This document shows, piece by piece, positions 20,887 to 32,000 of a stretch of DNA of 32,000 nucleotides (its first letter is position 1; each line of letters begins with the position of its first letter). Source of the DNA: an uncultured archaeon. Lineage in GTDB: Archaea > Asgardarchaeota > Thorarchaeia > Thorarchaeales > Thorarchaeaceae. The position numbers and the translations under genes were made by a program. Under the pieces are notes generated by a model. That model ran no database searches. It saw only the letters and a program-made list of their open reading frames with translations, and was not told the origin of the DNA. Location of the stretch: assembly GCA_964354495.1 (NCBI GenBank), contig CAYHAA010000001.1, positions 615,010 to 647,009 on the forward strand, read 5' to 3'.

Positions 20887-21480
20887 CTCTCATCTTGCCT
20901 CCAACAGCTAAGACTAAGTAGCCTTGCCTGTTGGAACGTGCATCTCAATTCTGATTATTGTCTGCTCCGTTGTTCATAGAAGTCCTCTATGCTATCTCTC
21001 CAAGACTCTACAGCAGGTTCCATAGATTCTTGCCAGCAAATTCGCGCTATTGTGGCTCTTTTCCTTCTGGACTAGGCTATTGCCAGACTTCTACTATCAG
21101 TGTTAGTACCAAACTGCAAGAGTCAGAGGGTTTTCTCTCGTTCTTCTTGGGTTCGAGCCGGCATGTGGCTTCCATCGCCTTTTCTTCACCAACGCGTCGA
21201 TTCAAACTTGACCTCATACAACAGGAACTGCTTCTTCTTCCAACAAGAGATTGAATGTGCCATTAATGATCTGTTGGACTTGCAGAACTGTACTCTTCCA
21301 CTACCCAGAAGTCTAACACGAGCTTTGTTCAGGGTCAATGGAGCTCTATGAAATGCGATTAAGCAGCCTATGACCATCATAGTCGCTATAGGCAAACTCC
21401 AACTTCTCATATCGAGCTTCTACTCCTCTGGGCAGATTGAACTATCTTTGAGTGACAGTTGTTCTCGTACGGTGCATGAG

Positions 21481-22233
21481 ATGATTACGCAACTGGACGA
21501 ACAACTGGCCGCAGCAGTGAAAGGTGTGAAAGCACACACCACTGTGGATGTCACCCTCGTCCTTCAGGTCATGTTCAACAGCAGCGATCGCAGTATCATC
21601 ACTGCTAAGCTTCGGTACAATGGGCATGACAGGGACACCAACTTGGTGATGGTTGTTGGACTGAGGAGCGATATTCTCTCACCATTCCAGAAGATTAGTT
21701 TGGATCAGAGGGGCCGCTATCGACCCTGTGATATCCCTGGATTAGTGCCAGGACTCGCGCAGCTCGCACTATCAGCAAACAATGGTGTGATGCTTAGCGC
21801 AATTTCGCGCGAAGAGGTAACCCGATTCATCTTGGTCTTTGAAGGTTTAGCTGAGCGAAAGGGTGGATGCTTGAAGGCACTTGCATCGGTTCTCACTGCT
21901 TTCATGAAGCGGTGGACTGATTGGACCGATGTATTGCTAGGTACTCTGAAGCGAGATCCGATTGTAGGCGATTGGGACGTCGACTGGAGGGAGATGTTGG
22001 CTGGTGAAAGCGGGTATGCGACAATGGCTTGGTTCACACCCTTGACATATTCCGACCGTGAAACCGGGCTCCAGAGAATCGTTGCTGCATCTCAAGCTCT
22101 GCTCGTATCGGTACTCAGCGCGAATCAACTGAAGGACCCGATGATATTTGGCCTGAAGGATTGGCTCACATCACTGAAACCCCTTCCGCAGGTCGCAAGT
22201 AGCATGCAAGTTGGTGAGGAGGTAGAAATCTAG
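21481..22233 (+). CDS. Hypothetical protein, first gene of the recombination-associated operon
   Basis: Long ORF with natural composition; start placed at ATG 21481 (GGTG at 21471-21474), while the ORF track gives 21370. The stop is 1 nt before the next gene. Confidence 0.7.
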   Translation: MITQLDEQLAAAVKGVKAHTTVDVTLVLQVMFNSSDRSIITAKLRYNGHDRDTNLVMVVGLRSDILSPFQKISLDQRGRYRPCDIPGLVPGLAQLALSANNGVMLSAISREEVTRFILVFEGLAERKGGCLKALASVLTAFMKRWTDWTDVLLGTLKRDPIVGDWDVDWREMLAGESGYATMAWFTPLTYSDRETGLQRIVAASQALLVSVLSANQLKDPMIFGLKDWLTSLKPLPQVASSMQVGEEVEI

Positions 22234-22234
22234 T

Positions 22235-22702
22235 TTGATGGTTGATGATGTAATTTACAGTATTCCCCGTGAAACATACAGCCTGCCCCAAGCGTCTTGG
22301 TTGGCAGGTGCAGCAGCAGGTCTTCAGATCATGGGCCCGAGGACCCCTGAGTGGCTGTGGAATGATTTCATCCGTGATATCTATGATATGATACGAATGA
22401 TTGGTGATGTCGTACCTGCAGAGCCAGGTACTGCCCCTACTTATGGCGATGGCCATGTGGGAAGTGCATTCGACGCTCTTGGGGGCTATATCAGCATTGT
22501 AGGTGAAATATGTCCCGAAGGGCTCTATTTTCGTGTGCCCTTAGTTCGCCAGGAGGACGTAGCTCGTTTGCTGAATGGCCTGACACTCTTCAGATCACAA
22601 GGCGAAATCGTCATTCCTCTATACGATCTTCCAGCCTTCTCGCGTCTTGTTCCTCTGGAAGGACCGGTTGCTGAGCAGCTTGAAGATGAGGTGACTCCAT
22701 GA
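22235..22702 (+). CDS. Hypothetical protein (possible degenerate LAGLIDADG-like fold)
   Basis: GAGGAGGT RBS at 22216-22223; ATGA overlap with radA. Segment GSAFDALGGYISI weakly resembles a LAGLIDADG helix. Confidence 0.65.
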   Translation: MMVDDVIYSIPRETYSLPQASWLAGAAAGLQIMGPRTPEWLWNDFIRDIYDMIRMIGDVVPAEPGTAPTYGDGHVGSAFDALGGYISIVGEICPEGLYFRVPLVRQEDVARLLNGLTLFRSQGEIVIPLYDLPAFSRLVPLEGPVAEQLEDEVTP

Positions 22703-23790
22703 CCGAACTCGAAGCTGTGCCTGGCGTAGGCCCTGCAGTGGCCAAGAAGCTTCGGGAGGCTTATGTTACCACGGCTGAGCTTCTTGCAGTGCAGAATCCT
22801 GTGGAACTTCTGAAGCGTACAAAGTTAGGAGAAGGCACAACTGACAAAATAATCAAGAATGCTCGTCAGCTCATTGGCAAGTTCGGCTTTCGGTCCGGGC
22901 TTGAAATCGAGCAGGAAATGGCAACCAAACCTCGACTGAAGACTGGAGTCGGGAAGATTGACGAATGCCTTCTTGGCGGCATCGAAGTCGGGTCCATCGT
23001 TGAGATATTTGGGCCTGCCCGAGGTGGAAAGACCCAGTGGGTTTCGCAGCTTGCAGTGATGGCCCAACTTCCGTATAAGCAGGGTGGGCTTGAAGGCAGG
23101 GTTCTCTGGCTTGATACTGAATCAAGTTTCAAACCTTGGATAATTAGAGCGAATGCGGTCAGGCATGGTCTGGATCCAGATATCGCACTCGGCAACATCG
23201 GGCGCGCTGAGATTGTGCTTTCTGGCCAGATTGCTGAAATTTTTGAGAGCATCCCTCAGCTCTGCGCCGAACAGAACTACAAGCTTGTTGTGATTGACAG
23301 TTTCACTGGTCTCTTTCGTGCCGAGTACACAGGGCTCGAGTCTATGCGTGTCCGACAACAGGACATGAATTCTCTCCTTAACCACATGCGACGTACAGCT
23401 GCTGCAACAGAAGCCATCTTTGCATATACGAACCAAGTCATGGCAAAGATCTCAAACTACGGAGGCAATCCCAATGCGCCTGTCGGTGGACACATCATTT
23501 CGCATGCGAGTGATTACAGATTCTACACGCGCAGGACCAAAGCTGATATTCGCAAGATTGAACTACAGGACAACGCCGGCCTGCCAGAGTTCGATGTTGA
23601 TGTGTACGTAGGTTGGGGTGGATTCTATTCTGACTCCAAGGCAAAGAAGGAGCATGAGCCTGATGTCTTAGAGTACTTCGAGAAGCGAGGTATCAACGTT
23701 CAGGAGGAGGCAGGTGCACTGGGCTCTGATTCAGAAGAAGAGGAGCTCGTGGCAGTGGCTGAGTCAGCCCAGGCAGGCGACGATACGTGA
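22699..23790 (+). CDS. radA: RadA/Rad51-family recombinase paralogue with N-terminal HhH domain and acidic tail
   Basis: LEAVPGVGP (HhH), LKTGVGKIDECLLGGIEVG, Walker A GPARGGKT, LDTESSF, Walker B LVVIDSF, RQQ, TNQV and GGHIISH. GAGGTGA RBS at 22688. Confidence 0.92.
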   Translation: MTELEAVPGVGPAVAKKLREAYVTTAELLAVQNPVELLKRTKLGEGTTDKIIKNARQLIGKFGFRSGLEIEQEMATKPRLKTGVGKIDECLLGGIEVGSIVEIFGPARGGKTQWVSQLAVMAQLPYKQGGLEGRVLWLDTESSFKPWIIRANAVRHGLDPDIALGNIGRAEIVLSGQIAEIFESIPQLCAEQNYKLVVIDSFTGLFRAEYTGLESMRVRQQDMNSLLNHMRRTAAATEAIFAYTNQVMAKISNYGGNPNAPVGGHIISHASDYRFYTRRTKADIRKIELQDNAGLPEFDVDVYVGWGGFYSDSKAKKEHEPDVLEYFEKRGINVQEEAGALGSDSEEEELVAVAESAQAGDDT

Positions 23791-24245
23791 GCAGAGACCG
23801 GGGCATGTTCCGAGTCTACCATTGTGCGAAATGCAACAACATTGGTTACAGCCAAGTAGAGAGTGAAGAGGATCTCACCAGATGCGGTCTATGTCACGCT
23901 CCCATTCTACATGAAACTGGAACTGTCTACGCAGTGACGAAGCACGAAGCCCAGACGTTAGTACGAGAACTTGCTCTTGAATCACATACTTCAAGGGCTG
24001 CTTCAAAGCGAAGCCCTCCACGTGGACTAGGCGTGAAGAGGAGAGTATACAATATTATTGAGGCATTGGTGGACATCAAACGAGGCAAACCCACCTCACT
24101 TGAGGAAGTGATGAGGGAATGCAGCGAGGCTGGGATAGAGCTTCGCCGTGCAATGAAGTTCTTGGAAACTCTGGAGTCGGAGGGCTTGATTGTCAATGAT
24201 GGTGCGAATATTACTATAACACGCGAGGTATGGCCCGATGGCTAG
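23787..24245 (+). CDS. Zinc-ribbon (CxxC...CxxC) plus C-terminal winged-helix protein (DUF1922/DUF5817-like architecture)
   Basis: HCAKC...RCGLC, then RVYNIIEAL...SLEEVMRECSEAGI...KFLETLESEGLI, resembling MCM-type C-terminal WH. GTGA overlap with radA. Confidence 0.7.
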   Translation: MSRDRGMFRVYHCAKCNNIGYSQVESEEDLTRCGLCHAPILHETGTVYAVTKHEAQTLVRELALESHTSRAASKRSPPRGLGVKRRVYNIIEALVDIKRGKPTSLEEVMRECSEAGIELRRAMKFLETLESEGLIVNDGANITITREVWPDG

Positions 24246-24858
24246 CTCTGATAGCCTTTCAGATTCCTTGTTGCCTAATAAGGCAGCGGCCTGCATTCCG
24301 CAGTGGTCGATGATTAGCCTAGTCAATCTCATGCTTAGAAAAACGCCGCATAGAGTATCTGTCTTAGAGCGATGTGATGGCCCCGACCCTCAGTTATTTG
24401 TCGTGACGCGCGTTGAGTGGAGAGACCCTGACGTCAAGAAACCATTTCTTTCACAGCTACCTAGGATACTCTCTCTTCTCGAGACTCTTCGTGGTTCCAA
24501 GGGTGTCCCTCGAGAGGTCTATCTTGACAGCACAGAAGGTGTCGTGGTCTACCTGCCCAGTGGCTTGAAGGTTTCCGAGTTGCCTCATGAACCCAAGAAT
24601 GCAGTTCATCTTCTGATGTCCATTGTAGAAACCTCTCTCGAACATCTGTATTCAACTATGGGAGACGTTGAATCTTGGTTCTGGAAGGCTGCTCGCCAGA
24701 AGGGATTCAGTCCCGAGATTGTTGAGAAGATGGGGAAGAAGGAGGCGCACTACGACTCTAATGATTTGATGTGGCGGTTTCAACGACTCCTCCAGAAGTA
24801 CTTCTCGTTGAGGTTCACTATTCAACGGAGCGAGTCATGCTTAAGATTGGAGGATTAA
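24238..24858 (+). CDS. Hypothetical protein
   Basis: 206-aa ORF overlapping the upstream gene by 8 nt and ending 2 nt before the XPD start. Confidence 0.7.
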   Translation: MASSDSLSDSLLPNKAAACIPQWSMISLVNLMLRKTPHRVSVLERCDGPDPQLFVVTRVEWRDPDVKKPFLSQLPRILSLLETLRGSKGVPREVYLDSTEGVVVYLPSGLKVSELPHEPKNAVHLLMSIVETSLEHLYSTMGDVESWFWKAARQKGFSPEIVEKMGKKEAHYDSNDLMWRFQRLLQKYFSLRFTIQRSESCLRLED

Positions 24859-24860
24859 GA

Positions 24861-26813
24861 GTGAGCAGCGCGACAATCGACCCTATGATCTATTTCCCCT
24901 ATTCTCCGAGGCAATATCAGGAGAGAGCAGTAAGCCTAGCTGCAAAGGCTTTCTCCTCGGATACGGTCGGGCTTCTTCACGCAGACTGTGGGATTGGCAA
25001 GACAATCGCAGTGCTCTCCGGATATCTTGCTTGTCGAGCTATGGATTCAGCTGCTCATCTTTTTGCTCTGACGCGTACTCATTCCCAATCTAAGGTCTTT
25101 GAGACAGAGCTTGAGGTGCTCAGAAGCGCAGTGCCTCATCTGGCTGCTACCACCATGGTATCTCGAGTTCATGTCTGTCCAATTCGTCATCAGATGGAAT
25201 CGCTCAGTCATACAGGTTTCATGCGAGCGTGCGTAAATATGATTAAGACTGAGCAGTGCATCTACTACTGGAATTTCTACAAGCGAAGCAATACTGATGG
25301 CAAAGTAGTCATCGATGAGGATGGGCGCAGGGCAATAGGGGACCTGCTTGATACTGGAGTTGTCACGAGAGAGAGGGCTGAAGAACGAGCGGCGCAGGAT
25401 GGCTATTGTCCCTACGAGATTATGCGATGGTGCGCTCGTGGAAGCATGGTCGTCATCGGACCCTATTCCTACATGTTCAAGTCACGAGTCCGAGAGGCTC
25501 TCCTCTCATCCTTAGGTCTCTCTCTCAATGAAGTGGACCTGCTCATCGATGAGGCCCACAATCTGTCAGGGCACGTTCTTGATGCTGAGACATCAATTCT
25601 AAGTAACGATGATCTGCGATGGTTGAGGGAGAATAGCCAGCTAGTGGTTCGAGAAACAGGCGTATCGTGGATTCGCGAGGCGATTGACTTTCTTTGGGAG
25701 AGCATGATGCTTCACCTGGACACTATGCAGAAACAGACGGAGTGTCCTCTTGACAAGTGGGATGTTGCGCCTAGGTTCATCAAGGATGAGGACCTCGACA
25801 TCCTTCACCGTGTGGGCCGACCAGAGCTTGGCGACCCAGAAAATGCCAGTCTTGTTGAGACTCCTCTTGATAGACTCATTGAGTTCCTCTACACCGCTCA
25901 AAGAGCTGCACGAAGTGATGGATGGCACGTTACTCTGCACGTGGATCATTCATTCTCTGATGACTTGCCAAGATCAACATCTTCTCTCATGATTCAACCA
26001 CTCAACTCTGCAGGATTGACTGCTCCAATTCTCAGAGGAGCTAGATCTGCTGTACTGATGTCTGGGACTCTCCGGCCGCTGGACTATTACGAGCGTCTGT
26101 TGGGCGTGCCAAACGCGATTTCGGATGACCTCACAAGCCCTTACCCCCGAGGCACACGACTTGTACTCATTGACAAGAGGCTGAACACGCGATACAAGGA
26201 ACGCAACCCGGAGTTATGGCGAGATGTTGCAGCAAGGATTTCCGCTGCTCTCTGTACCATGCCTGCGAACAAGAGTGCGCTCGTTGCGTTTCCCTCCTAC
26301 AAGATGATGAGCGAGGTAATGAGCTATAGTATAGATACCGGATTTCGGGAGGCATTAGTAGAAACGCGAGATGCCCTGTTGGAAACCGTTGCTCAAGCGA
26401 TTTCACACAGCCCTTGCGCTATGTTTTGCGTATATGGCGGCAAGTTCTCGGAAGGAATCGATCTTGTCAGTGCTGGTTCTAGTATGATTGACCTGATTAT
26501 TGGCGTAGGCATACCATTCAGTCCTCCGACAAGCTATCAGACAGCTCTTCAGAGCTGGTATGATAGCAAGTTCGGGCATGGCATGGGCTACTACTATGCA
26601 TCTGTCGTACCATCAATCAGACAGGTTGCACAGTTGGTTGGGAGACTGAGACGCTCTCCAAGTGATTCTGGTGTTGTCGTACTTCTTGATAATAGGTTTC
26701 TACAGCATCTGTCGGTCTTTGGGGATGAAATTGTATCGGACGTCTGGCCATACAATGACCCCATGGAAATGAAGGAGGCGATTACACAATTCAACCAGGT
26801 GAGGCTGGGATAG
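24861..26813 (+). CDS. XPD/Rad3/DinG-family ATP-dependent Fe-S DNA helicase
   Basis: FPYSPRQYQ (Q motif), ADCGIGKT, four Fe-S Cys (RVHVCP, RACV, QCIYY, YCPYE), IDEAHNL, MSGTL, FPSY, GGKFSEGID, GIPF and QLVGRLRR. Start placed at GTG 24861 after GGAGG. Confidence 0.93.
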   Translation: MSSATIDPMIYFPYSPRQYQERAVSLAAKAFSSDTVGLLHADCGIGKTIAVLSGYLACRAMDSAAHLFALTRTHSQSKVFETELEVLRSAVPHLAATTMVSRVHVCPIRHQMESLSHTGFMRACVNMIKTEQCIYYWNFYKRSNTDGKVVIDEDGRRAIGDLLDTGVVTRERAEERAAQDGYCPYEIMRWCARGSMVVIGPYSYMFKSRVREALLSSLGLSLNEVDLLIDEAHNLSGHVLDAETSILSNDDLRWLRENSQLVVRETGVSWIREAIDFLWESMMLHLDTMQKQTECPLDKWDVAPRFIKDEDLDILHRVGRPELGDPENASLVETPLDRLIEFLYTAQRAARSDGWHVTLHVDHSFSDDLPRSTSSLMIQPLNSAGLTAPILRGARSAVLMSGTLRPLDYYERLLGVPNAISDDLTSPYPRGTRLVLIDKRLNTRYKERNPELWRDVAARISAALCTMPANKSALVAFPSYKMMSEVMSYSIDTGFREALVETRDALLETVAQAISHSPCAMFCVYGGKFSEGIDLVSAGSSMIDLIIGVGIPFSPPTSYQTALQSWYDSKFGHGMGYYYASVVPSIRQVAQLVGRLRRSPSDSGVVVLLDNRFLQHLSVFGDEIVSDVWPYNDPMEMKEAITQFNQVRLG

Positions 26814-26815
26814 AT

Positions 26816-27421
26816 ATGATGCAACTCCACGCTTTTCACGAATTGAAACTGATTGGCCTGACCATCCTGGCAGTTATCTTTGTGCTCAAGGTCTACCTTG
26901 CTCCTGGAGACTCTGTAGGGATTATTATGACTGGTGCTGGTCTGGCCGCATATGTTGCAGCCTTAGTTATCCATCTGTCATCGTCATCCATACCACGGGT
27001 CCTCTGGGATGCCAAGCTCGGCGCTGTGGCTATCATTCGCTCTTGGACAGTCGAGGTCGCCTCAGCAAAGATTCTCTCAAGTGTGCCTATTGGCATTGAC
27101 TTGAGTCATTCTGGTCGAAAGGTACTGCAGTCTATGTACACTCGATTCCTAGACAAGCCCGGGGGAACATTAGTCTTCTTCATCACTAGACCGATGGGCA
27201 ACCAATCAACAAGAGTGGGCTACCTAGTTCGGAGAAGGAGATTGAGGCTTTGGAACAGCTTAGGTCCGGTTAACAACCTTGGGAAGATGATCACTGCTGA
27301 CTGTATGATTCTGGAACGGTCGATGAGAGCTGCCTATCCTCATCTTCCCGTGGTCGATGCTAGCTTCGCCGACATCATAACAACCGCAGCTGGAGGTCTT
27401 GAAACTCATGTCGTCGTCTGA
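26816..27421 (+). CDS. Membrane protein with two N-terminal TM helices and a cytoplasmic alpha/beta domain
   Basis: LIGLTILAVIFVLKVYL and VGIIMTGAGLAAYVAALVIHL followed by a basic soluble region; 2-nt gap to XPD. Confidence 0.7.
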   Translation: MMQLHAFHELKLIGLTILAVIFVLKVYLAPGDSVGIIMTGAGLAAYVAALVIHLSSSSIPRVLWDAKLGAVAIIRSWTVEVASAKILSSVPIGIDLSHSGRKVLQSMYTRFLDKPGGTLVFFITRPMGNQSTRVGYLVRRRRLRLWNSLGPVNNLGKMITADCMILERSMRAAYPHLPVVDASFADIITTAAGGLETHVVV

Positions 27422-27707
27422 ACAACGCTCTGGCATCGAAATCCCTGAAGGTGTAAGTCCAGAGGCAATCATGAGCTTTTTGGAAGTTGGTCACAACTAT
27501 CGTTGGACCGTGCTTACGCGTCTGCCTCTCTTGGTCGCTCACGGTGCACCTGCACTGGGCACTGGTAATATGCCTGAAATCCTCTTGGCTGGCAATAGAT
27601 CTATGATTATTGCAGGTGGTGACACCGCATACGTCGAGAGAATACGCCACGTACTCGAGATGTTGAAGCGTCAATCACAGCGAATGATTTTTACAAAGGA
27701 GGGTTGA
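27408..27707 (+). CDS. Small hypothetical protein
   Basis: GGAGGT at 27392-27397 precedes ATG 27408; overlaps the upstream gene by 14 nt. Confidence 0.65.
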   Translation: MSSSEQRSGIEIPEGVSPEAIMSFLEVGHNYRWTVLTRLPLLVAHGAPALGTGNMPEILLAGNRSMIIAGGDTAYVERIRHVLEMLKRQSQRMIFTKEG

Positions 27708-27711
27708 GAGA

Positions 27712-30072
27712 ATGCCTAAACGCTTGATACTTGGGACTAGACCTGAATCCGATCCTCTGAAAGAGTTCTCCGATTCTGACTACTCCGTTTCCTCTTCTAC
27801 TGAGATCCGATGGGATGAGAGGACACAGAGTCGTCCTCTTGCTCTACCAGCGTTCATCTCGCTCATCTGTGTTGCCCTTGGGTTGTATGACCCCCTCATC
27901 CCGTTCACTGTCGGAATCGCCGTTGTTGCGTTGGTCCTGTTGATCCCTTTCATCCGAACGAACTGGGACAAGATGGTCTTGCGAGAAGACTCTTGGATTG
28001 AGGTACAGCAATCAGACACGCTTTGCTCTATCGTTGATGACATTGTGGGCCTGAACTGCAGGACACCTACAGGTACACATCATCTAATGGGAATGCAGCT
28101 GGGTGCTGCAAACTCCATTCTTCTAGGTGACGTCGGCTCGTTCGTGCGAGCGGTTGATGGCCCATTCGGTTTTTGCCTAACTGTGACGATGCAGCCCGAG
28201 AAAGTCCAACGTGCCCTGGACGAGGAACGCATTGCGGATCCGGTTGAAGATTATCTCAACGCGATTCCTAAAGGAGAGGTTGAAGCTTATGTTCTTCGGC
28301 GAGGGGGCCTGTGGATTTCTCAGGTGACAGCTGTGGGCCATTTCAGGAACGCTGCTGATGGCGATATCTTCGAGTGTGCCCTAAAGGCATCGATTCCAAT
28401 GGATAAATGGAAGCGTATCCCGTCTAGGACTCTGCAAAAAGGAACTGAGCAGCTTGCTGCTAACGACCAATCTAAGTGGTTCTATGCAGTTGGCTCAGAG
28501 CTCTCTGAATGGTTAGTGCAGCTGCGATCAGAGCTGGCTTCCGAGGTTGGACGAAGTATCCCCGGTCAGTTTCTCGCCCCAATCAGAGGGAGATCCGATG
28601 ACTATCGCTTGGGCGTGACTATCAATCCAGATACCTTACGGACAGGACCACCAGTAGGCCTCTCTCACCTTGAACTGGAGAATGGCCTGTTGATATGCGG
28701 AGGCGCTGCTGAATCAAGAATGAGAATCATTGCTCTACTGACATCTGAGCTCTTGCATGCTGGCAAGCGCATTATCATCTTTACAAATAACAGAGCATCT
28801 ATTGGTTATGCTCGGCTCTTGGAAGGAACAGTGCATCTTGAGCTCGGAAGAGACTTTGTGCTCAATCCAGTCGACTCTGAAGGTGTTCCAAGAAGCGACT
28901 ATGTACCGCTTCTGATCTCTTCCCTTGAAGTGGTGGCAGCCACAGATCTGAGGGGTGCCGCGGAGCTTGAGCTGGCAATATCGTGTGCTGTCACTCTTGG
29001 AAATGCAACACTGGCTGACGTTCAACTCAGCAATGGCTCTGAAGAGGCTATTTCATCTTCTCCTGAAACCTCGAAACCACTTGAATCAATGCCTTCGAAC
29101 AAGTCGAAGACAGGAATGGAGGCAGTTCGCTCACTGCATCAAGGCTCTGCCGCTAAAGCATTCTATGGCACTCAGACAGCTCCAACTTCTAGGCTCACAG
29201 AATCTGCATTGACTGTTGTAAGGGTTCTTCTGGGGTCTGCTTCTCTCGAACACTTTGCATGGAATGTGATTTCAATAAAGCTGGCCGGTCTGGGTCCAGA
29301 TCCCAATCTAGTGGTGATTCTTGATGGACCAGAGAACATGCGGGTGAGAAATCGCACCTTCATGAAGCATGACTCGCTTAGTGAGCGTCTTGTTGAAAAC
29401 ATGAAGAAGAGAGGTCCAGTCGTAGTAGCACTGGAGCATCCCGCAGACATGGCTGTGGGAGCTATCGGTGCTTTGGCTTCATGTGTGTCACTGAGGCTGC
29501 GTGAGGCAGCAGACATCATGGTGGCTTCCGATATATTGGGCCTGAATGTGATTACAACTCCCTTGCATACTAAAGCGCGTATTTCTCCGAGAGAATCCTC
29601 ATATCTTCGAGTAATGGATGATGACACTGCACTCCTCGTGCATGATGGGACTGAAAGCTGTCAACCTATCAGACTCGATCCAGCTCCCGAATTGACTCCG
29701 GAGAGTGCCACAGAGGAGGAGTCCCAACGGATTGGCACACTGCTATCATCAGAGGACACGAGCAGTGCACCAAATCAAGGGTCTCTGCTTGACAGAGTTT
29801 CTGCGGGCTGTACTATTCTTGCCATCAGAGTCCTGAAGTTGCTTGAGAGATACGAACCGTTGACTCAGGAGGCTGTACGTCGATTCATAGTGGCTAGTGG
29901 TTCGGAGAATGATCCTGACGTAGAGGCTGTCCTTGCGAGGCTTGAGCATGCTAGCATGATTCTACGCGGTCATGAGGTCCATAGCGGAGTATCGTATACA
30001 AACTACAGAATCACAATGAAAGGAAGCATGGCCCTTCGTCAGACTGAGGGTACGGAGGGTGCAATTGCATGA
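27712..30072 (+). CDS. Membrane-anchored HerA/VirB4/FtsK-like protein with degenerate ATPase motifs and C-terminal winged helix
   Basis: Two N-terminal TMs. GLLICGGAAESRM occupies the Walker A position, FVLNPVD follows, VVILDGPE occupies the Walker B position and MKKRGPVVVALEHPAD matches the GRKYG...TQRPSD position. C-terminal wHTH: RVLKLLERYEPLT...LARLEHASMI...YRITMKG. Confidence 0.6.
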   Translation: MPKRLILGTRPESDPLKEFSDSDYSVSSSTEIRWDERTQSRPLALPAFISLICVALGLYDPLIPFTVGIAVVALVLLIPFIRTNWDKMVLREDSWIEVQQSDTLCSIVDDIVGLNCRTPTGTHHLMGMQLGAANSILLGDVGSFVRAVDGPFGFCLTVTMQPEKVQRALDEERIADPVEDYLNAIPKGEVEAYVLRRGGLWISQVTAVGHFRNAADGDIFECALKASIPMDKWKRIPSRTLQKGTEQLAANDQSKWFYAVGSELSEWLVQLRSELASEVGRSIPGQFLAPIRGRSDDYRLGVTINPDTLRTGPPVGLSHLELENGLLICGGAAESRMRIIALLTSELLHAGKRIIIFTNNRASIGYARLLEGTVHLELGRDFVLNPVDSEGVPRSDYVPLLISSLEVVAATDLRGAAELELAISCAVTLGNATLADVQLSNGSEEAISSSPETSKPLESMPSNKSKTGMEAVRSLHQGSAAKAFYGTQTAPTSRLTESALTVVRVLLGSASLEHFAWNVISIKLAGLGPDPNLVVILDGPENMRVRNRTFMKHDSLSERLVENMKKRGPVVVALEHPADMAVGAIGALASCVSLRLREAADIMVASDILGLNVITTPLHTKARISPRESSYLRVMDDDTALLVHDGTESCQPIRLDPAPELTPESATEEESQRIGTLLSSEDTSSAPNQGSLLDRVSAGCTILAIRVLKLLERYEPLTQEAVRRFIVASGSENDPDVEAVLARLEHASMILRGHEVHSGVSYTNYRITMKGSMALRQTEGTEGAIA

Positions 30073-32000
30073 CCGTAGTTTCGGATGTGACATCACTGGT
30101 CACAAAGCTACTCAGTCAGGCTGGGATGAAACCCCGGGGTGTTCAAACCGAGGCAATCAACAGAGGTCTCTTGGAGGGAGAGAGCATCATGGTTTCCTCT
30201 CCGACAGGCTCTGGCAAGACATTCTGCGGCGAGATTGCGCTTCTGAGAGCAGTTGCCTCCGGAAAGAAAGGGCTGTTTCTCGTACCACTACGAGCTCTTG
30301 CAGTTCAGGTATTCAGAACGGTGAAAGAAAGATACGAGCACTTGGGCGTCTCAATTGGGCTGAGCACTGGTGATTTTCAAAACAATGGAGATGGACTTGC
30401 TGAGAATGATATTATCATCACGACGTACGAACGTGCAGATTCACTCTTACGAAGCAAAAGTAGTTGTCTCTCTGAGGTCGGCACGATTGTCATCGACGAA
30501 ATTCAAACGCTCTCTGAGGTCGGCCGTGGAGCTCGCCTAGAGAGCTTTATTATTCGGGCAAAGCGAACCATCCAAGACCTTCAGATTGTGGCATTATCCG
30601 CAACAACAGGAGCTCCCGAGGAACTTGCAGAGTGGCTGGGATGTCATCTTGTGATCTCAGACGAACGACCTGTTCCTCTTGTGTATCGAATAGTTACAGC
30701 GAGTGACAAGATTCTCACGATCAAGCATCTAGTGATGACCACAGTTCAAGGGAATGGGCAGGCAATCATCTTTCACCGGACTCGTCGGGAAGCTGAAGCA
30801 GAAGCTAGACGACTCGCTGATGATGTGGGGCGCCAGTTCACTTCTGATGAGAAGACGCGCCTTGATCACGAGCTGAACTCTGTTGAGAATTGGCATGTGC
30901 CCCTCTCTTCAGATCTTAGAGTCCTTCTACACAATGGTATTGCATTTCATCATGCAGGTCTTGGCTTCAATGGTCGTCGAATTGTAGAGCGATTGTTCGA
31001 TAAAGGAATGGTCCGCGTCATATGTGCAACGACAACATTGGCAGCCGGAATGGACCTGCCAGCTAGAACCGTGATACTCTCCAACTTCAGGTCTCCTGCT
31101 GACCACAGAAAATTCCTGTCAGCAAACACAGTCCACCAGATGTTGGGGAGGGCGGGTCGTCCTACTCGTGACAAGATAGGATTCGGAATAATCATTGGAA
31201 ACAGCACAGGTGAGAGTGAGGAGGCAAAACGCCGGTACTTCGAAGTCACCGAAGATGCAACATCAGGAAAGGAAGTTCTATCACCCAAGTATGATCGTGT
31301 CAACAGTGCACTTGCCCACCCTGACACTCTTGCTGAGCAGCTTCTTGTTGCTCTCGACATGATGTCCTCGGCATCCATTGAAGACATCGAGAATGGCTTG
31401 CTTGGTGAATCCTTCTTGGTCTTCTGCGCAATTCGAGACTCAAAGGCTCCAATGAGGGTCTTTCAGCTAGGCGAAATCTCGGCGGCTTCAGTCTTGGAGC
31501 AGCATGCTCTCCCTGAGACCATTCAGACTGCGCGTAAGGATTTGCTCGGTAAGACATCACTTCGTGAGAAGAACGAAACCGTAATTGGCGGGATTGTTAC
31601 GACGCTTGATGGAGGGCAATTCACATGTCGTTTCTCGGTACGTCTTTCGTCATCGGGTGTTGTTGAAGGTCCCATGTGCTCGTGTGGCTCACCCTTGTCT
31701 GAGAGCGGCATTCTGTGCTATCATCTGGTGACTCTAGGAATGGCTGCTGCCAGGAACTTGGGCAATCTGGCTGACTACGTCATTCCTCTCTCACTCTCTG
31801 AATCGAGCCCTCTGGGTCTGTTGATACGCCTTGGACTCGTCGAGGGTGATATTAGTGGAAAGATTAGACCTACACGTCTTGGTCGTGCCGTGAGTAGACT
31901 CTATCTGCGCATTCCCACGGTTCGAGAGACCCTTGCAATGCTCCCCTCGACTGAGGACGTTAAGTCGCTCTTATGGCTCTTGAGGCACGCTGTTTCAATT
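30069..32000 (+). CDS. 3'-truncated Hel308/Hjm/Ski2-like SF2 helicase with an inserted SWIM zinc finger
   Basis: Absent from the ORF track because it has no stop in the window; translated by hand from ATG 30069 (ATGA overlap). Motifs: VQTEAI, SPTGSGKT, VPLRALA, TTYE, IDEIQ, LSAT, FHHAGL, ATTTLAAGMDLPA, QMLGRAGRP, CSC-x10-CYH at 31677-31724 and PTRLGRAVSRLYL. Confidence 0.92.
   Translation, partial: MTVVSDVTSLVTKLLSQAGMKPRGVQTEAINRGLLEGESIMVSSPTGSGKTFCGEIALLRAVASGKKGLFLVPLRALAVQVFRTVKERYEHLGVSIGLSTGDFQNNGDGLAENDIIITTYERADSLLRSKSSCLSEVGTIVIDEIQTLSEVGRGARLESFIIRAKRTIQDLQIVALSATTGAPEELAEWLGCHLVISDERPVPLVYRIVTASDKILTIKHLVMTTVQGNGQAIIFHRTRREAEAEARRLADDVGRQFTSDEKTRLDHELNSVENWHVPLSSDLRVLLHNGIAFHHAGLGFNGRRIVERLFDKGMVRVICATTTLAAGMDLPARTVILSNFRSPADHRKFLSANTVHQMLGRAGRPTRDKIGFGIIIGNSTGESEEAKRRYFEVTEDATSGKEVLSPKYDRVNSALAHPDTLAEQLLVALDMMSSASIEDIENGLLGESFLVFCAIRDSKAPMRVFQLGEISAASVLEQHALPETIQTARKDLLGKTSLREKNETVIGGIVTTLDGGQFTCRFSVRLSSSGVVEGPMCSCGSPLSESGILCYHLVTLGMAAARNLGNLADYVIPLSLSESSPLGLLIRLGLVEGDISGKIRPTRLGRAVSRLYLRIPTVRETLAMLPSTEDVKSLLWLLRHAVSI

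Follow-up and report, generated by a model that had tools for sequence, protein, structure and literature searches.

A predicted SWIM-type zinc finger inserted in the winged-helix domain of a Hel308-like helicase paralogue encoded in a Thorarchaeota operon

Helicase gene at the end of the window

The window, the whole stretch of 32,000 nt analysed here (G000:C1:615010-647009, contig C1 of genome G000, an uncultured member of Thorarchaeaceae), ends within a gene for a Hel308-like superfamily 2 (SF2) helicase, the winged-helix (WH) domain of which carries an insert predicted to be a SWIM-type zinc finger. In eukaryotes, Hel308/HELQ helicases act together with RAD51 paralogues in recombination. 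The gene occupied nt 30069..32000 of the plus strand; its open reading frame (ORF) was open to the window end and extended 261 nt further in the genome, giving a product of 730 aa, designated P0002. In a phmmer search of the PDB, residues 25-399 of P0002 matched Hjm (2zj2, E = 2e-69) and Hel308 (2p6r, E = 1e-66), the best solved relatives, and the Pfam matches were DEAD (1.6e-31) and Helicase_C (3.6e-9). The RecA1 and RecA2 motor domains (nt 30141..31223, plus strand) had Walker A (SPTGSGKT), DEIQ, SAT and QMLGRAGRP all intact, and these motifs were invariant across the 31 aligned homologues described below; judged by its Ski2-type motifs, the SF2 motor is catalytically intact. HMMER aligned residues 585-615 with Hjm 463-493, the end of the WH domain, and residues 670-706 with Hjm 588-625; thus, P0002 has about 130 surplus residues between the motor and the WH wing.

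On the NCBIfam models for Hel308, P0002 scored 264 to 349 bits against cut-offs of 887 to 1200, and the protein is thus considered a divergent Hel308 paralogue. The canonical Hel308 of the same genome (L057), a protein of 755 aa, was encoded on contig C6 and scored 835.7 bits on NF002654 over its full length, compared with 349 bits, in the motor region only, for P0002. P0002 as the sole Hel308 of the genome was therefore rejected. Alignment to L057 showed that the helix-hairpin-helix (HhH) domain 5 was absent from P0002, and the ratchet domain 4 was shortened and weakly detected (PF21280, 17.4 bits versus a cut-off of 27), so that neither the five-domain architecture of Hel308 nor an equivalog-level score was seen. 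P0002 shares with Hel308/Hjm, the archaeal Ski2-like DNA helicase related to eukaryotic HELQ and the helicase domain of POLQ, the RecA1-RecA2 motor, WH domain 3 and part of domain 4, whereas the changes at domains 4 and 5 and an additional 128 aa within the WH domain set it apart. By sequence, P0002 is a paralogue in a SWIM-bearing Hel308-like group and not the housekeeping Hel308.

Boundaries and conservation of the insert

The first part of WH domain 3, made up of helices (residues approximately 418-452), was encoded by nt 31320..31424, as indicated by an AlphaFold2 (AF2) model and the alignment to canonical Hel308, and the second part, a recognition helix plus beta wing (residues 581-610, LLIRLGLVE...PTRLG), by nt 31809..31898, as indicated by HMMER, the model, which placed strands at residues 591-593 and 599-601, and the alignment. 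Between the two, at nt 31425..31808 and likewise on the plus strand, lay the insert of about 128 aa (residues 453-580). In the alignment to L057 it was a single clean insertion between '...GESFLVFCA' and 'SPLGLLIRLGLVE...'. The initial annotation, made from the DNA letters, had proposed an insert in the WH region of a Hel308-like helicase, ending in C-S-C-x10-C-Y-H at nt 31677-31724. Its location agreed with the Hjm alignment and with that to canonical Hel308; the latter, with the genome's own L057 as the reference, delimited one insert at about residues 453-580, and the motif (residues 537-552) was precisely where it had been put.

C537, C539, C550 and H552 (CSC-x10-CYH; nt 31677..31724, plus strand) are the predicted zinc ligands, on the basis of conservation and of PF04434 matches at homologous sites. 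A homologue search restricted to residues 400-730 of P0002 returned 126 relatives, nearly all named Thorarchaeota, and 31 of them were aligned (52% to 92% identity). C537, S538, C539, C550 and H552 were invariant in these 31, and the spacer between CxC and CxH was 10 residues in 30 of them, in keeping with the SWIM ligand pattern CxC-x(6-25)-CxH. The four ligands were also kept, at the same relative position, in Asgard orthologues from other families (24% to 40% identity) and in one degenerate paralogue. Conservation of the ligands is, from these alignments, far above chance. The invariant residues of the insert were mostly structural or zinc ligands, and the insert was mildly acidic, with a median pI of 6.05 and a net charge of -2.

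Fold of the insert

The AF2 model of residues 395-625 had a predicted local distance difference test (pLDDT) score of 87.9, and a model of the insert alone had 85. The modelled insert comprised a loop, two short helices (residues 472-489), a four-stranded beta sheet (494-537) and two helices (551-575), with CxC on the last strand of the sheet and CxH opening a helix; the WH helices lay on one side of this unit and the WH wing on the other. The insert had been described initially as beta-rich, which suits the sheet but not the two short helices before it or the two helices starting from CxH.

Strands followed by a helix with CxH are the arrangement of SWIM domains, and likeness to known SWIM domains was found in several collections. 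Among approximately 48,000 solved chains covered by a fold search, ZSWIM8 (9rwz, residues 114-214) was the sole one with Z above 5 (Z 5.6, rmsd 3.6, 89 residues aligned), the next-best matches having Z of 3.2 to 3.4, and a second search gave the same result. More than 20 of the top 30 matches in the Swiss-Prot set of the AlphaFold Database (AFDB) were SWIM proteins, with probabilities up to 0.98, including YehQ, YwqB, the SNF2 helicase MG018, ZSWIM2/3/4/5/6/8 and FAR1/FHY3/FRS. The AFDB clusters matched at probability 1.00 were mostly named 'SWIM-type domain-containing protein', and the ESM Atlas fold matches were PF04434 and SNF2_assoc clusters (TM 0.51 to 0.58). Furthermore, PF04434 was detected at the homologous site of L065, a group member from Baldrarchaeia, with 27.7 bits, above the cut-off of 19.6, and the homologous sites of P0128 and of the paralogue P0123 came close to this cut-off, with 18.2 bits.

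Three results weigh against the SWIM assignment. Pfam gave no PF04434 or SWIM match in P0002, either for the whole protein or for the insert alone, even at E <= 10; Foldseek searches of the PDB with the WH-plus-insert and insert-only models yielded nothing at E <= 0.001, ZSWIM8 having 0.14 to 0.2; and a Z of 5.6 for ZSWIM8 is modest on the search tool's own calibration. The fold scores are individually modest because the domain is short, but their consistency is convincing. The identification of the insert as a SWIM-type domain, put forward in the initial annotation, is upheld by the fold matches and by the above-threshold L065 hit, although PF04434 itself, the family named there, was recognized at the same site of L065 and not in P0002. 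We thus consider it highly probable that a SWIM domain, predicted to bind zinc, is present at this site. That CxC...CxH arose by chance or is purely structural and metal-free, the insert being lineage-specific filler, would agree with the silence of Pfam on P0002 but is very improbable in view of four ligands invariant over orthologues and paralogues at 24% to 97% identity, a confident model (pLDDT 85 to 88), consistent SWIM fold matches and the Pfam hit above threshold in one group member.

The P0002 domain shares with other PF04434 domains (ZSWIM8, FAR1/FHY3, Escherichia coli YehQ, Bacillus subtilis YwqB and the N-termini of bacterial SNF2 proteins) the CxC-xn-CxH pattern, with n = 10, the preceding sheet and the helix opened by CxH, whereas its sequence is too divergent for a Pfam call. 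In bacteria, SWIM domains are already known to be paired with an SF2 ATPase, as in the SNF2_assoc/SWIM clusters; there the SWIM is an N-terminal module, whereas in P0002 it interrupts the WH domain of a helicase of the Ski2/Hel308 type.

Other searches with the insert gave little. Its profile, run with HMMER against 1.84 billion representatives, matched its own family and, apart from that, three DUF5122 beta-propeller proteins alone, which aligned to residues 38-83 and were rejected as repeat or compositional matches, and a feature search of the ESM Atlas with the insert gave no usable match. Among AFDB clusters, the insert was best matched by an unnamed protein of 603 aa, A0A662Q2Z9 (TM 0.61, residues 351-452). 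Dictyostelium MUS81 (Q54Q14, residues 208-297) also matched the SWIM model, at probability 1.00.

SWIM-bearing helicases in Asgard archaea

When 400 genomes of the phylum were searched with two queries, the insert profile and the WH-plus-SWIM region of P0123, SWIM-bearing helicase frames of 709 to 839 aa were found in at least 10 Asgard families (f1, f2, f4, f5, f14, f19, f22, f28, f29 and f31). In f22, the largest Asgard family in the sample, one of 135 genomes had a member of the group, and several other families had none. Four other Asgard genomes with a SWIM-bearing helicase also carried a canonical Hel308 (835 to 886 bits). In maximum-likelihood trees, the SWIM-bearing sequences lay on one side of a single branch, with support of 93/92 for full-length sequences and 74/92 for the motor core with the insert columns excluded, so that the SWIM label needs one change. 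The trees are therefore compatible with a single insertion event, which they support modestly. L065 had the SWIM in the WH domain together with Helicase_dom4_arc and HHH_5, that is, a complete Hel308 architecture. The idea that the SWIM substitutes for a lost domain 5 was rejected, since L065, L062 and L061 all carry both SWIM and HHH_5.

Thorarchaeota have two descendants of the SWIM group, the operon copy lacking domain 5 and P0123. The latter, a SWIM-in-WH Hel308-like protein of 716 aa, was encoded outside the window on the minus strand (G000:C16:21279-23426; L006:9280-11427). Its helicase motifs were degenerate (Walker A VSHDYDEAYT, DExH DRLD) with an intact CSC-x13-CKH, and it is likely a pseudo-helicase retaining the SWIM. 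Among the 85 genomes of the family, 79 had P0123, which adjoins sucCD and RNA-modification genes. A second SWIM-bearing Hel308-like paralogue of 715 aa, with CECSEF...CRH at residue 523, was found in the Baldrarchaeia-like genome besides L065 and the canonical Hel308 (G005:C57:14400-17100; L072). A word-based homologue search starting from L065 returned two proteins and no more.

Both the combination of SWIM with SF2 ATPases, in bacterial SNF2 proteins, and WH insertions in Ski2-like helicases are already known, and database pipelines already annotate PF04434 on at least one member of the group. A WH-embedded SWIM in a group of Asgard Hel308 paralogues was not found in the literature searched, including a 2024 survey of the Ski2 family (PMC10946056) and a 2026 review of HELQ/Hel308 (PMC13623763). 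The analysis thus defines a subfamily of SWIM-bearing Hel308-like helicases of which no description was found in the Ski2/Hel308 surveys or the literature searched.

Operon containing the helicase gene

The helicase gene was the tenth of 15 tightly packed, co-directional genes on the plus strand (g01 to g15), an operon delineated from ORF lists and Pfam that occupied nt 21370..32000 of the window and continued about 5.3 kb past it (L005:2277-7300). No assignment was obtained for the products of g01 (287 aa), g02 (155 aa) and g05 (206 aa). The g03 gene (nt 22699..23790) encoded a RadA-like recombinase of 363 aa with an HhH N-domain, an intact Walker A and an acidic tail, which matched Pfam Rad51 (3.4e-52, 178.7 bits) and HHH_5 and scored 257 bits on NCBIfam RadA (cut-off 259). 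As the canonical RadA, with 304.1 bits on Pfam Rad51 and 38% identity to g03, was located elsewhere on C1 (C1:560193-560894), g03 was regarded as a RadA paralogue, i.e. a second copy. The predicted product of g04 (152 aa) was a small zinc-ribbon or winged helix-turn-helix (HTH)-like protein; that of g06 (nt 24771..26813, 680 aa) was an XPD/DinG-like helicase (Pfam DEAD_2 and Helicase_C_2); g07 (201 aa) had 2 transmembrane (TM)-like segments; and g08 encoded a small protein of 102 aa. The g09 gene (nt 27712..30072), directly upstream of the helicase gene with a 4-nt overlap, encoded a protein of 786 aa with 2 TM-like segments, which had no Pfam match and was similar to HerA/DUF87/CedB clusters by language-model features only (ESM Atlas features, 0.90 to 0.92). 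P0002 was the product of g10. Past the window, g11 encoded a TM-hairpin membrane protein (562 aa), g12 a RecA-fold protein with an intact P-loop, GDAGSGKT (237 aa), g13 a membrane protein with about 4 TM-like segments (322 aa), g14 a Rad51-like protein that had lost Walker A (HGRERAPLS; 245 aa), and g15 a FEN1/XPG-like nuclease (334 aa). The initial annotation was thus right that a RadA paralogue is encoded together with the helicase, and the operon in fact holds three RecA-family genes. A hydropathy scan indicated TM-like segments in four operon proteins, g09 included.

In a tblastn comparison of the 15 products with loci of other genomes, no fewer than 10 genera of the family had the genes in this order. 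Of the 85 genomes of the family, 57 carried the SWIM-helicase locus, and the GH3 gene found upstream of it was shared across genera. The sister family f2 retained part of the operon. In f14 (L055) and f19 (L063), the SWIM-helicase lay less than 10 kb from RadA-like, RecA-like, HerA-like or FEN-like genes. RadA-like or RecA-like genes near the helicase recurred in four families, including f2, f14 and f19, suggesting a functional link between the SWIM-helicase and RecA-family proteins that is recurrent, not universal.

Some further features of these genes were observed. The short RecA-fold pair was encoded at L005:5562-6299 and L005:3928-4641, and the 245-aa member keeps a PIGGNVLSH-type L2 region. 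The XPD-like g06 product matched the PADLOC model typeIV_DinG (type IV CRISPR-associated) at 6.5e-74, more strongly than NCBIfam rad3 (2.3e-44), and another XPD-like gene, with 26% identity to g06, was present on contig C3. In both f14 genomes, the best Rad51-family match scored about 193 to 202 bits, the level of a paralogue (G095:C21:33449-34183 and G108:C316:2146-2883), that of G095 belonging to the cluster close to the SWIM-helicase; a RadA above 300 bits was found in neither genome, at a completeness of 80% to 86%.

Possible role of the SWIM insert

Overall, the best explanation, which we hold with a little better than even confidence, is that the SWIM insert in the WH domain of this Hel308-like helicase is a partner-coupling adaptor. 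Taken by itself, the claim that the insert serves for protein docking is plausible at somewhat less than even chances. The motor would translocate 3'-5' on single-stranded DNA in the manner of Hel308, the SWIM module would project from the WH domain as an accessory surface, topologically like the arch insertion of Mtr4/Ski2, and this surface would couple the helicase to partners in a machine for recombination or DNA processing. The likeliest partners in Thorarchaeota would be products of the same operon, the RecA-fold paralogues being one candidate. An adaptor role is favoured by the mildly acidic character of the insert, which sets it apart from a generic DNA-binding module, by the contact of yeast Shu2 with the Rad51-like Shu1, which the SWIM domain mediates (PMC5727457), and by the setting of the gene within a multi-protein operon. 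The arch of Mtr4 and Ski2 is likewise an accessory domain placed inside the WH domain of Ski2-like helicases and acts there as an adaptor platform (PMC10946056), whereas the folds are unrelated (stalk plus KOW there, SWIM in P0002) and Mtr4/Ski2 are eukaryotic RNA helicases. A zinc finger for protein or DNA interaction would thus sit at the same place as the adaptor arch, in a conserved Asgard paralogue.

Several points count against the adaptor role. A nucleic-acid role would be equally natural, as the WH domain of Hel308 contacts DNA; the group members of f5, f28 and f29 had no operon gene, including the RadA-like one, within about 10 kb; and the degenerate P0123 keeps its SWIM in a housekeeping neighbourhood. 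From the lack of operon neighbours in these three families, it follows that the SWIM insertion arose either before the RadA-paralogue neighbourhood or independently of it. Recognition of branched DNA is accordingly a serious rival, in which the insert would be a nucleic-acid element that extends or re-specifies the recognition of forks, D-loops or flaps and does not bind protein, and we regard it as a real, though minority, possibility. The insertion is positioned between the WH helices and the recognition helix and wing, within the HTH of a domain that in Hel308 touches the duplex at a fork and to which substrate recognition is ascribed (PMC13623763); among prokaryotic structural matches, the nearest are SWIMs at the N-terminus of bacterial SNF2 DNA translocases; and the SWIM is retained in group members without a RadA-paralogue neighbourhood. 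Its slightly acidic composition and the mostly structural or zinc-coordinating nature of its invariant residues do not fit DNA recognition well.

That the partner of the insert is specifically a RadA paralogue appears rather unlikely. Complex prediction of the SWIM insert with the RadA-like, 237-aa and 245-aa proteins, using our own alignments, gave a score of 0.00, which counts neither for nor against binding. According to the 2026 review, clear data for a contact between Hel308 and RadA are lacking (PMC13623763). The Thorarchaeota SWIM-helicase and its operon with three RecA-family proteins offer a testable system for the recruitment of Ski2-like DNA helicases to the recombination machinery through accessory domains.

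Relationship to the Shu complex and HELQ

The initial annotation had gone further and proposed a docking role, in which the SWIM would attach the helicase to the RadA paralogue as an archaeal analogue or forerunner of the Shu/SWS1-HELQ module. This requires a SWIM specifically related to SWS1/Shu2, docking onto the RadA paralogue or paralogues of the operon, so that the Asgard system would be an analogue or forerunner of the Shu complex or the HELQ-RAD51-paralogue module. The idea is attractive, the host being an Asgard archaeon in which the operon of the helicase also holds three RecA-family genes, as it does across the genera mentioned, with RadA-like or RecA-like genes also near the helicase in f2, f14 and f19. 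The Shu2-Shu1 contact noted above (PMC5727457) and the binding of HELQ to BCDX2 (PMC13623763) point in the same direction, and Shu2/SWS1 (ZSWIM7) resembles P0002 in having a SWIM domain in a recombination context with Rad51 paralogues (PMC5727457, PMC6316741). It is unsupported, however, and quite unlikely in our estimation. The structural matches listed were generic SWIMs (ZSWIM8/4/5/6, FAR1-type and bacterial SNF2-associated), and ZSWIM7/SWS1 and Shu2 were not among them, an absence that does not amount to exclusion. The SWS1-family signature is CxC...CxHxxA with an invariant alanine (PMC6316741), whereas P0002 has T555 at this position and the aligned family has A in 15/31, T in 9/31 and other residues in 7/31. 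In addition, Shu2/SWS1 are small stand-alone proteins, Shu2 having n = 59 with an insertion domain, in contrast to the internal SWIM of P0002. Distribution also argues against the proposal, given the single occurrence among the 135 genomes of f22 and the absence of the group from several other families. The members of f5, f28 and f29 without a RecA-family neighbour show the architecture in genomes lacking a nearby paralogue, which goes part of the way to refuting the proposal.

A broader version can be envisaged in which the WH-embedded SWIM of the Asgard Hel308 paralogue binds the neighbouring RecA-fold paralogues, and the resulting mediator complex would correspond in mechanism to Shu (SWS1-SWSAP1) together with HELQ-BCDX2. 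It might act at the membrane, alongside a HerA/CedB-like translocase, in the recombination of imported DNA. We give this reading only a slim chance.

Possible function in defence or DNA transfer

The membrane-related members of the operon raise a different possibility, namely that the operon serves not housekeeping recombination but defence or DNA transfer, with the SWIM-helicase as its nucleic-acid effector or sensor (Hachiman HamB-like, or for Ced-like import), the SWIM tying it to the membrane or HerA-like parts. PADLOC models for HamB matched the helicase core (1.6e-40), and this reading would also accommodate the typeIV_DinG match of the XPD-like gene, the four proteins with TM-like segments and the HerA/DUF87/CedB-like features of the 786-aa protein upstream. 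The HamB matches, however, were limited to the generic SF2 core, and no match to HamA, the nuclease partner of HamB in Hachiman, was found among the nine operon proteins searched with PADLOC. Conserved synteny, with a shared GH3 gene upstream and the locus in 57 of the 85 genomes, moreover fits vertical inheritance better than a mobile island. Defence or transfer is unlikely as the function of the operon. The operon might be a membrane-associated machine for DNA import plus recombination.

A giant alpha-2-macroglobulin-like surface protein with Prenyltrans, MG2 and Big domains (1645 to >2600 aa) was encoded adjacent to or inside the cluster in three Asgard families, an arrangement that would also suit defence or transfer. 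The corresponding loci were L005:10557-17000, downstream in the genome studied here, L004:19855-22202, L007:14278-22068 and L055:13269-18206.

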